From NCBI RefSeq assembly GCF_003334765.1, contig NZ_QOWT01000144.1: a stretch of DNA of 316 nt. One strand, written 5' to 3'. Positions 2 through 316 of this stretch are shown here, one piece after another. The stretch is from Escherichia coli. GTDB lineage: Bacteria > Pseudomonadota > Gammaproteobacteria > Enterobacterales > Enterobacteriaceae. The notes beneath the pieces are model-generated. The model saw only the letters and a program-made list of their open reading frames with translations, searched no databases and was not told the DNA's origin. The first letter of the stretch is position 1. Each line of letters opens with the position of its first letter. A program made the translations under genes and the position numbers.

Positions 2-49
2 GGATATTTCCCTGAAACTACATCCCTTGTTATGCAGGGCCATAACCTC
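2..49 (-). other. Putative helix-turn-helix DNA-binding motif, first half only, truncated by the window edge
   Basis: Residues EVMALHNKGCSFREIS fit the L-x3-G-x-S-x3-I-(A/S) spacing that, from memory, begins many transposase and resolvase type HTH domains. The predicted recognition helix would lie beyond + position 1, so this cannot be completed from the window. Confidence 0.3.
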
Positions 50-316
50 TGTCCAACGCTGATGCCGTTTTTTGCGGATGTGCTGTTTAAGGCGTTCCAG
101 ACGACGGAGCGATGCTACAGGCACAGATATTTCTGGCTCAGGTGATTTCTTCAGTGATAACTCTCTGACAACAAGACGTATCAGAGGCATATATCTGTAC
201 ATCATTCGTTCAGGCTCATCACCAATATTTTTTAGCAGGTGCCATCGATCGGCCACCTGTCTGGCCTGAGGTGCACCTTCACGTGCTGCTGTCGCATAGA
301 CTCCACTGCGATCACG
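2..316 (-). CDS. Partial CDS, both ends outside the window: hypothetical basic DNA-binding protein with an HTH-like motif; possibly a transposase, recombinase or regulator, family unassigned
   Basis: Minus-strand frame beginning at + position 316 is open for all 105 codons. The other two minus frames hit stops within about 30 codons, and the + frames are broken by stops apart from one 65-aa ORF. The translation is Arg/Lys-rich and carries an L-x3-G-x-S-x3-I-S motif at its C-terminal side. Codons are mostly enterobacterial-type (CTG, CGT, CGC, GAA, AAA) with several rare ones. No homology search was possible, so function is inferred from motifs only. Confidence 0.6.

Follow-up and report, generated by a model that had tools for sequence, protein, structure and literature searches.

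Does a cluster of codons that are rare in enteric bacteria, found in a short stretch of Escherichia coli DNA, mark a gene that was acquired horizontally, and if so, which gene is it and when did it arrive? The stretch analysed (hereafter the window, meaning its entire 316 nucleotides) had been judged from its letters to hold eight AGA, AGG, ATA or CTA codons among 105, alongside two CGA. The original prediction took this bias as a hint of horizontally acquired or accessory origin, characteristic of a recently acquired mobile or prophage gene, and compatible with a transposase or a regulator, provided that the host was an enteric bacterium. The host is indeed enteric, as many E. coli chromosomes contain the window at 100% identity. 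We consider it very probable that the window is a minus-strand internal piece of an ISEc38-like transposase gene of the ISL3 family, surviving as a non-functional relic at one fixed site, within an IS-rich island, in about half of the complete E. coli genomes, and that its rare-codon excess is real and a property of the whole family.

Six-frame translation of the window left a single frame open throughout, minus-strand frame 1, which runs from position 316 to position 2, comprises 105 codons, and translates as RDRSGVYATAAREGAPQARQVADRWHLLKN...HNKGCSFREIS. On this strand the 105 codons include three AGA, one AGG, three ATA, one CTA, and two CGA, which makes the predicted counts (8/105 for the first four, and 2 CGA) exact, on the reverse complement only. 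A forward-strand reading of positions 2 to 316 was rejected in favor of the reverse complement, as it meets four stop codons and gives different codon counts. The frame had been placed at 2-316 with the strand left unstated; the placement is right for the minus strand, and the plus strand carries the four stops. The open frame and the flagged codons are located as follows, with comparisons made across six homologues.

Positions 2-316, minus strand: ORF fragment, codons 212-316 of a 540-codon ISEc38-like ISL3-family transposase pseudogene (L001 12001-12316).
Positions 260-262, minus strand: AGA, gene codon 230; AGA in 6/6 homologues compared.
Positions 245-247, minus strand: CGA, gene codon 235.
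Positions 233-235, minus strand: CTA, gene codon 239.
Positions 206-208, minus strand: CGA, gene codon 248.
Positions 194-196, minus strand: AGA, gene codon 252; AGA in 6/6 homologues.
Positions 179-181, minus strand: ATA, gene codon 257; ATA in 6/6 homologues.
Positions 164-166, minus strand: AGA, gene codon 262; lineage-specific, with AGT (Ser) in ISEc38 and in other genera.
Positions 128-130, minus strand: ATA, gene codon 274; lineage-specific.
Positions 11-13, minus strand: AGG, gene codon 313.
Positions 5-7, minus strand: ATA, gene codon 315; kept in 6/6 homologues.

Three further open reading frames occur in the window, two on the plus strand (37 and 65 aa) and one on the minus strand (27 aa). 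All overlap the transposase frame, and as genes they were treated as spurious, being without independent support. The 65-aa frame is TTG-initiated and lies antisense to the transposase frame (window 72-269, plus strand); all that speaks for it is that it is open, and it is probably spurious. An Rfam search of the window at a permissive threshold returned two chance-level matches only (E of 0.78 and 0.9, far under the gathering scores), and scans of the window for promoters and terminators found nothing.

In RefSeq E. coli annotation, the window lies inside a CDS named ‘ISL3 family transposase’ and marked as a pseudogene because of an internal stop. The full frame (L001 11368-12987) has 540 codons and is interrupted at codons 113 (TAA), 345 (TGA), and 460 (TAA). 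None of these three in-frame stops falls within the window, which is situated between the first two; the window looks open because both of the stops that bound it are outside. With the stops masked, the translation matched the NCBIfam model NF033550 (ISL3) at 344.7 bits against a cutoff of 180, over residues 32-535 and profile positions 2-368 of 370, and the window alone matched the same model at 50.8 bits (E=1.3e-13). Pfam placed Zn_ribbon_ISL3 (PF14690) at residues 40-84 and DDE_Tnp_ISL3 (PF01610) in two separated parts, at residues 160-249 and 414-533. The nearest named proteins in a protein search were intact, 539 aa long, 90-92% identical, and designated ‘ISL3-like element ISEc38 family transposase’. 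The model score bears out the transposase that had been proposed, and the regulator that had been offered beside it falls away, as the helix-turn-helix at the window end belongs to the transposase and there is no separate regulator. The parts of the protein that are encoded within the window are the following.

Positions 203-316, minus strand: end of the N-terminal half of DDE_Tnp_ISL3, residues 212-249 of the Pfam match at 160-249 (model positions 1-97).
Positions 311-313, minus strand: GAT, Asp213 in ‘VSRDRSGVY’, within DDE_Tnp_ISL3.
Positions 239-250, minus strand: DRWH motif (ADRWHLLKN), invariant in four homologues (P0094, P0001, P0103, and P0109).
Positions 2-202, minus strand: start of an insertion of about 165 residues that splits DDE_Tnp_ISL3, residues 250-316 of 250-413; a linker, then the first helix-turn-helix.
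Positions 77-82, minus strand: gene codons 290-291, CAC ATC (His-Ile), which are CAA ACC (Gln-Thr) in the intact same-locus copy and in ISEc38.
Positions 2-43, minus strand: start of a tandem helix-turn-helix like that of IS21 IstA, residues 303-316, WTEVMALHNKGCSFREIS..., placed by NF033546, the IstA structures, and an HTH_7 match at 293-326.

Judging from the family motif, Asp213 is presumably the second catalytic Asp of the DDE triad, and we take DRWH to be the ISL3-type ‘DRFH’ signature.

The element that carries the gene is 1,766 bp long and is bounded by imperfect inverted repeats with 43-nt arms that are 77% complementary (L001 11272-11314 and 12995-13037). Copies at other, unrelated loci align to exactly the same span and end at the same bases. 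A conserved GG(C/T)TCTTCC motif lies about 22 nt inside the ends that copies at different loci have in common, among them those at L005 and L007. GG(C/T)TCTTCC is the usual ISL3 terminus, and its position about 22 nt inside the ends means that the repeats of this subgroup reach further out, to about 43-45 nt, than expected for ISL3. Members of the ISL3 family generate an 8-bp target-site duplication; none was present at this copy, whose flanks read cttcacat and tatggcct, so that nothing in the flanks directly shows transposition into this exact site. The right flank may have been rearranged, since a truncated ggt begins 30 bp beyond the right terminus of the IS, and the missing duplication says little on ISL3 membership. 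The ggt segment itself is a truncated, frameshifted gamma-glutamyltransferase fragment (L001 13067-13359) with about 92% identity to the chromosomal ggt of genomes that are without the island. Its appearance is that of a paralogous remnant that the island carries, and the IS or a deletion next to it may have caused the truncation.

ISEc38 appears regularly in surveys of the E. coli mobilome, with 28 papers naming it, and the element is to that extent already known. By the ISfinder rule, elements with more than 90% nucleotide identity are isoforms. Positions 1-1749 of the 1,766 in the present element align with 94.0% nucleotide identity to the L007 copy, whose product is named by NCBI ‘ISL3-like element ISEc38 family transposase’, and by this alignment the element would rank as an isoform or close relative of that ISEc38-type copy. 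It shares with ISEc38 a 539-codon architecture (a 1,620-nt gapless alignment with 94% nucleotide and 90% amino acid identity), the same type of terminal inverted repeats, and the same rare-codon load. It differs in carrying three nonsense codons, in being fixed at one chromosomal site, and in having diverged by about 6% from the plasmid-borne and multi-site ISEc38-type copies.

The history of the relic (L001 11368-12987) can be followed through an intact copy at the same locus, represented by one metagenome contig (P0001, L008 1001-2620), from which it differs by 9 nt: three nonsense, five missense, and one synonymous change. The intact copy has the ISEc38 state at 9/9 of these sites, so the changes are derived in the lineage of the relic. 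The three nonsense changes are TTA→TAA, CGA→TGA, and CAA→TAA. Abundant 459-aa forms (P0101, P0103, and P0120) end at codon 460 and are without the other two stops; the occurrence of forms with the codon-460 stop only, together with forms that have all three, indicates stepwise decay. Nonsense changes account for 3/9 derived substitutions, against 4.5% expected (binomial P=0.006). This excess was not retained as a result: the gene is neutral after the first stop, two nonsense changes among the remaining eight have a probability of about 0.05, and the excess is thus unproven and may be chance. Two of the nine derived substitutions, CAAACC→CACATC at codons 290-291, lie two bases apart and are also present in P0103 (459 aa); they may have arisen as a single multi-nucleotide event. 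Copies H39 and H42 were considered as intact versions and rejected, both being pseudogenes. With stops at codons 113, 345, and 460, the present copy encodes no intact transposase and is non-functional. The recent acquisition that had been predicted is not borne out for this copy: it has these three stops, is single-copy, and occupies one and the same site in 2,553 genomes, among which divergence reaches about 2%. The copy is a dead relic of mobile-element origin, old and fixed at its site.

The element sits in an island that is crowded with IS21/IS100, IS66, IS3/IS2, and IS1 elements and contains many pseudogenes. Its neighbors there include an inovirus Gp2-family gene, two zinc-ribbon genes, and a phosphotriesterase/DMT/amidotransferase/PfkB cluster, and in one genome the island adjoins cobUST. 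Both an island and IS boundaries, the context in which the prediction was to be checked, were found around the window. Of 5,426 complete E. coli genomes, 2,950 (54%) contain the window sequence, with a median of one copy. The same insertion site, counted by aligning the IS and the 600 bp to either side of it at a coverage of at least 80%, was found in the 2,553 genomes mentioned above (about 47% of the 5,426), with 97.8-100% identity among the matches listed; these genomes share a single orthologous insertion. ISEc38-type copies with about 93-95% identity also occur at other chromosomal sites and on plasmids (1,473 records, of which 1,188 are conjugative) from Escherichia, Klebsiella (mostly more distant relatives), Enterobacter, Salmonella, and Serratia. 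The mobile or accessory origin originally proposed is correct, given an IS with terminal repeats, in an IS-crowded island, in only part of the genomes, with relatives on conjugative plasmids. Universal presence at this site throughout Escherichia and related genera, without any mobile copies at other places, would have spoken against it and is contradicted by these counts.

Some other genes of the island (L001 10288-11084 and 15458-16216) are rich in rare codons as well. The zinc-ribbon gene has 7 in 132 (P=1e-5), and the glutamine amidotransferase gene has 8 in 251 with a GC of 0.40 and a GC3 of 0.37, whereas other neighbors (Gp2 and the hypothetical gene at L001 4321-4923) resemble the host. 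In composition the island is a mosaic. The IS100 and IS66 genes nearby contain 17-23 rare codons per 1000, as compared with 63 per 1000 for the ISL3 pseudogene.

For comparison with the host, two 50-kb core regions were chosen in an E. coli strain with an identical copy of the window, and 88 of their annotated genes, all intact and none of them mobile (28,163 codons in total), served as the core reference. AGA, AGG, ATA, and CTA together amount to 76 per 1000 codons in the window versus 7.1 per 1000 in this reference, a small set with some highly expressed genes among its members, so that a whole-genome table would raise the expectation somewhat. Across the whole K-12 genome the four codons occur at about 11-12 per 1000, corresponding to about 1.2-1.6 expected per window, which is still far fewer than eight. 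Given the amino acids of the window itself, which include 16 Arg, 10 Leu, and 5 Ile among 105 residues, the eight observed rare codons compare with 0.97 expected (Poisson-binomial P=3.7e-6), and when CGA was added, ten were observed versus 1.7 expected (P=3.4e-6). None of 19,074 core windows of 105 codons reached eight, the maximum being seven. The excess of rare codons is thereby confirmed as real and beyond chance.

Other measures of codon usage were computed against the same reference. The GC3 of the window is 0.41 versus 0.57±0.05 per core gene, and values as low were obtained in 0.9% of core windows. A CAI-like index referenced to the core was 0.486 for the window versus 0.705±0.066 (z=-3.3), below every core window. 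Both quantities, which had been named in advance as the comparison to make, are therefore low. With 49.2% for the window and 51.4% for the gene, overall GC is indistinguishable from the 52.6±2.7% of the core, and being host-like it gives no sign of a foreign donor. Of the two resemblances to the core genome that were to count against the prediction, the one in GC content was thus found and the one in codon usage was not. The description of the remaining codons as typical of enterobacterial genes holds in part only: Pro is encoded by CCT in five of six cases and never by CCG (P=2e-4), and the index calculated without the five flagged codons stands at the 2.5th percentile of core windows.

The same load is found throughout the family. 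The whole pseudogene contains 34 rare codons in 536 sense codons, versus 4.4 expected. The intact same-locus copy also has 34 per gene and eight in the window region, the same as the relic, and intact ISEc38 has 29 per gene and eight in the window region, six of them at the same codons as in the relic. Homologues from Salmonella, Enterobacter, and Citrobacter with 78-83% amino acid identity have 27-32 per gene and 6-7 in the window region. Across the family, 539 codons accordingly include 27-34 rare ones, of which 6-8 lie in the region of the window. Because intact copies and homologues from other genera are equally loaded, the bias is a stable trait of the IS family and no product of pseudogene decay.

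Codon bias is a textbook feature of low-expressed mobile transposases. The most likely reason for the bias observed here would be very low expression combined with movement between hosts, as is usual for IS transposases. The transposase gene of a weakly expressed, horizontally moving element would never have been shaped by E. coli translational selection and would thus contain rare codons, whether the cause is foreign origin, lack of selection, or both.

An alternative is that selection keeps rare codons at set positions, where they would slow or pace transposase synthesis, so that the element restrains itself. ISEc38 has 14-20 rare-codon positions in common with homologues of about 79-81% nucleotide identity, as compared with 5.5-7.3 expected under a null that permutes codons within each amino acid and ignores relatedness, and within the window, codons 230, 252, 257, and 315 are rare in 6/6 sequences. 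At four-fold sites, however, identity still amounts to 52-58%, so common descent is by itself enough to predict much of the sharing. Positional conservation was for this reason rejected as evidence of function: it exceeds the permutation null, but synonymous sites are unsaturated. We regard selective throttling as improbable.

Even less credit can be given to the idea that the rare codons accumulated by neutral drift once the transposase had been inactivated. The gene does carry three nonsense codons, and among the window's eight rare codons, the two at 262 and 274 are lineage-specific, but the identical counts of the intact same-locus copy, per gene as well as in the window region, refute decay, and intact ISEc38 and the approximately 80%-identical homologues from three other genera are loaded to the extent given above. 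Moreover, none of the 9 nt that separate the relic from the intact copy makes a rare codon. That the count is an artefact of the amino acid composition of an Arg-rich DNA-binding protein (Arg being 16/105 residues), or simply chance, has next to no probability, as it is refuted by the test conditional on amino acids and by the failure of any core window to attain eight, with a codon set that is the standard a-priori list of E. coli rare codons and was not picked post hoc. Low expression and movement between hosts therefore remain the preferred reason for the bias.

Genes of E. coli with atypical codons were reportedly set apart as class III, the ‘alien’ genes, by Médigue et al. in 1991, and the concept of amelioration is said to come from Lawrence and Ochman. 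The window resembles the ‘alien’ class in its enrichment of AGA, AGG, ATA, and CTA, its low GC3 and adaptation index, its patchy occurrence among strains, and its location in an island. It departs from that class in that its overall GC matches the host, this copy is not recent but old, and the bias is that of a family of mobile elements circulating in the Enterobacterales.

A separate feature of the protein concerns the interrupted catalytic domain, as the window covers the junction where an insertion bearing a helix-turn-helix begins. DDE_Tnp_ISL3 is split by about 165 residues (window 2-202, minus strand; L001 12115-12606; residues ~250-413), and the insertion sits between Pfam model positions 97 and 117. 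The inserted stretch matches the IS21 profile NF033546 at positions 2-100 (residues 303-394, E=1.6e-12). Residues 304-398 of the transposase align to residues 12-107 of IS5376 IstA (PDB 8q4d/8b4h, E=1.3e-8), which comprise HTH-1 and HTH-2 and read the terminal repeats (PMC10122671). Among 1.84 billion representative proteins, all of which were scanned, 341 clusters matched at E≤1e-10. Eight of eight diverged representatives that were checked (514-586 aa) are ISL3 transposases above the cutoff and have the IS21-like stretch in the same place. The same-place insertion across diverged ISL3 clusters indicates a conserved architecture of a subgroup and no locus-specific chimera. A literature search on insertion domains in the ISL3 family found no paper on such an arrangement.

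Typical ISL3-family transposases are about 400-440 aa long. The ISEc38-like transposase resembles them in its N-terminal zinc ribbon, its DDE_Tnp_ISL3 core with DRxH, its C-terminal ‘EG.N..lK’, and its full-length match to the family model, and is distinguished from them by the tandem helix-turn-helix insertion of about 165 residues. With IS21 IstA it has in common the tandem helix-turn-helix, which is N-terminal in IstA and aligns with the inserted module. In IstA, however, this module precedes the catalytic domain, whereas here it is embedded in a catalytic domain of the ISL3 type, and unlike IS21 the element has neither an IstB helper nor an IS21-type DDE domain. A tentative and rather doubtful reading of these alignments is that the ISEc38-type branch of ISL3 may contain a module homologous to HTH-1 and HTH-2 of IstA inside its RNase-H-like domain, between the second Asp and the Glu, and that this might be a second end-reading module, acquired by or shared between IS families.

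As an annotation, the finding is correct but ordinary: the element is of a known IS type and has little import beyond the labeling of this locus. A count of rare codons in 105 codons sufficed to flag a mobile-element gene of E. coli correctly; the same signal cannot date the acquisition, because the copy that it flagged is an old, dead, fixed relic. The helix-turn-helix insertion is a feature of the family and is not specific to the window; it could be of interest to those working on transposase mechanism, and if the tentative reading given above is true, the module would mark a mechanistically distinct subgroup of ISL3 transposases.
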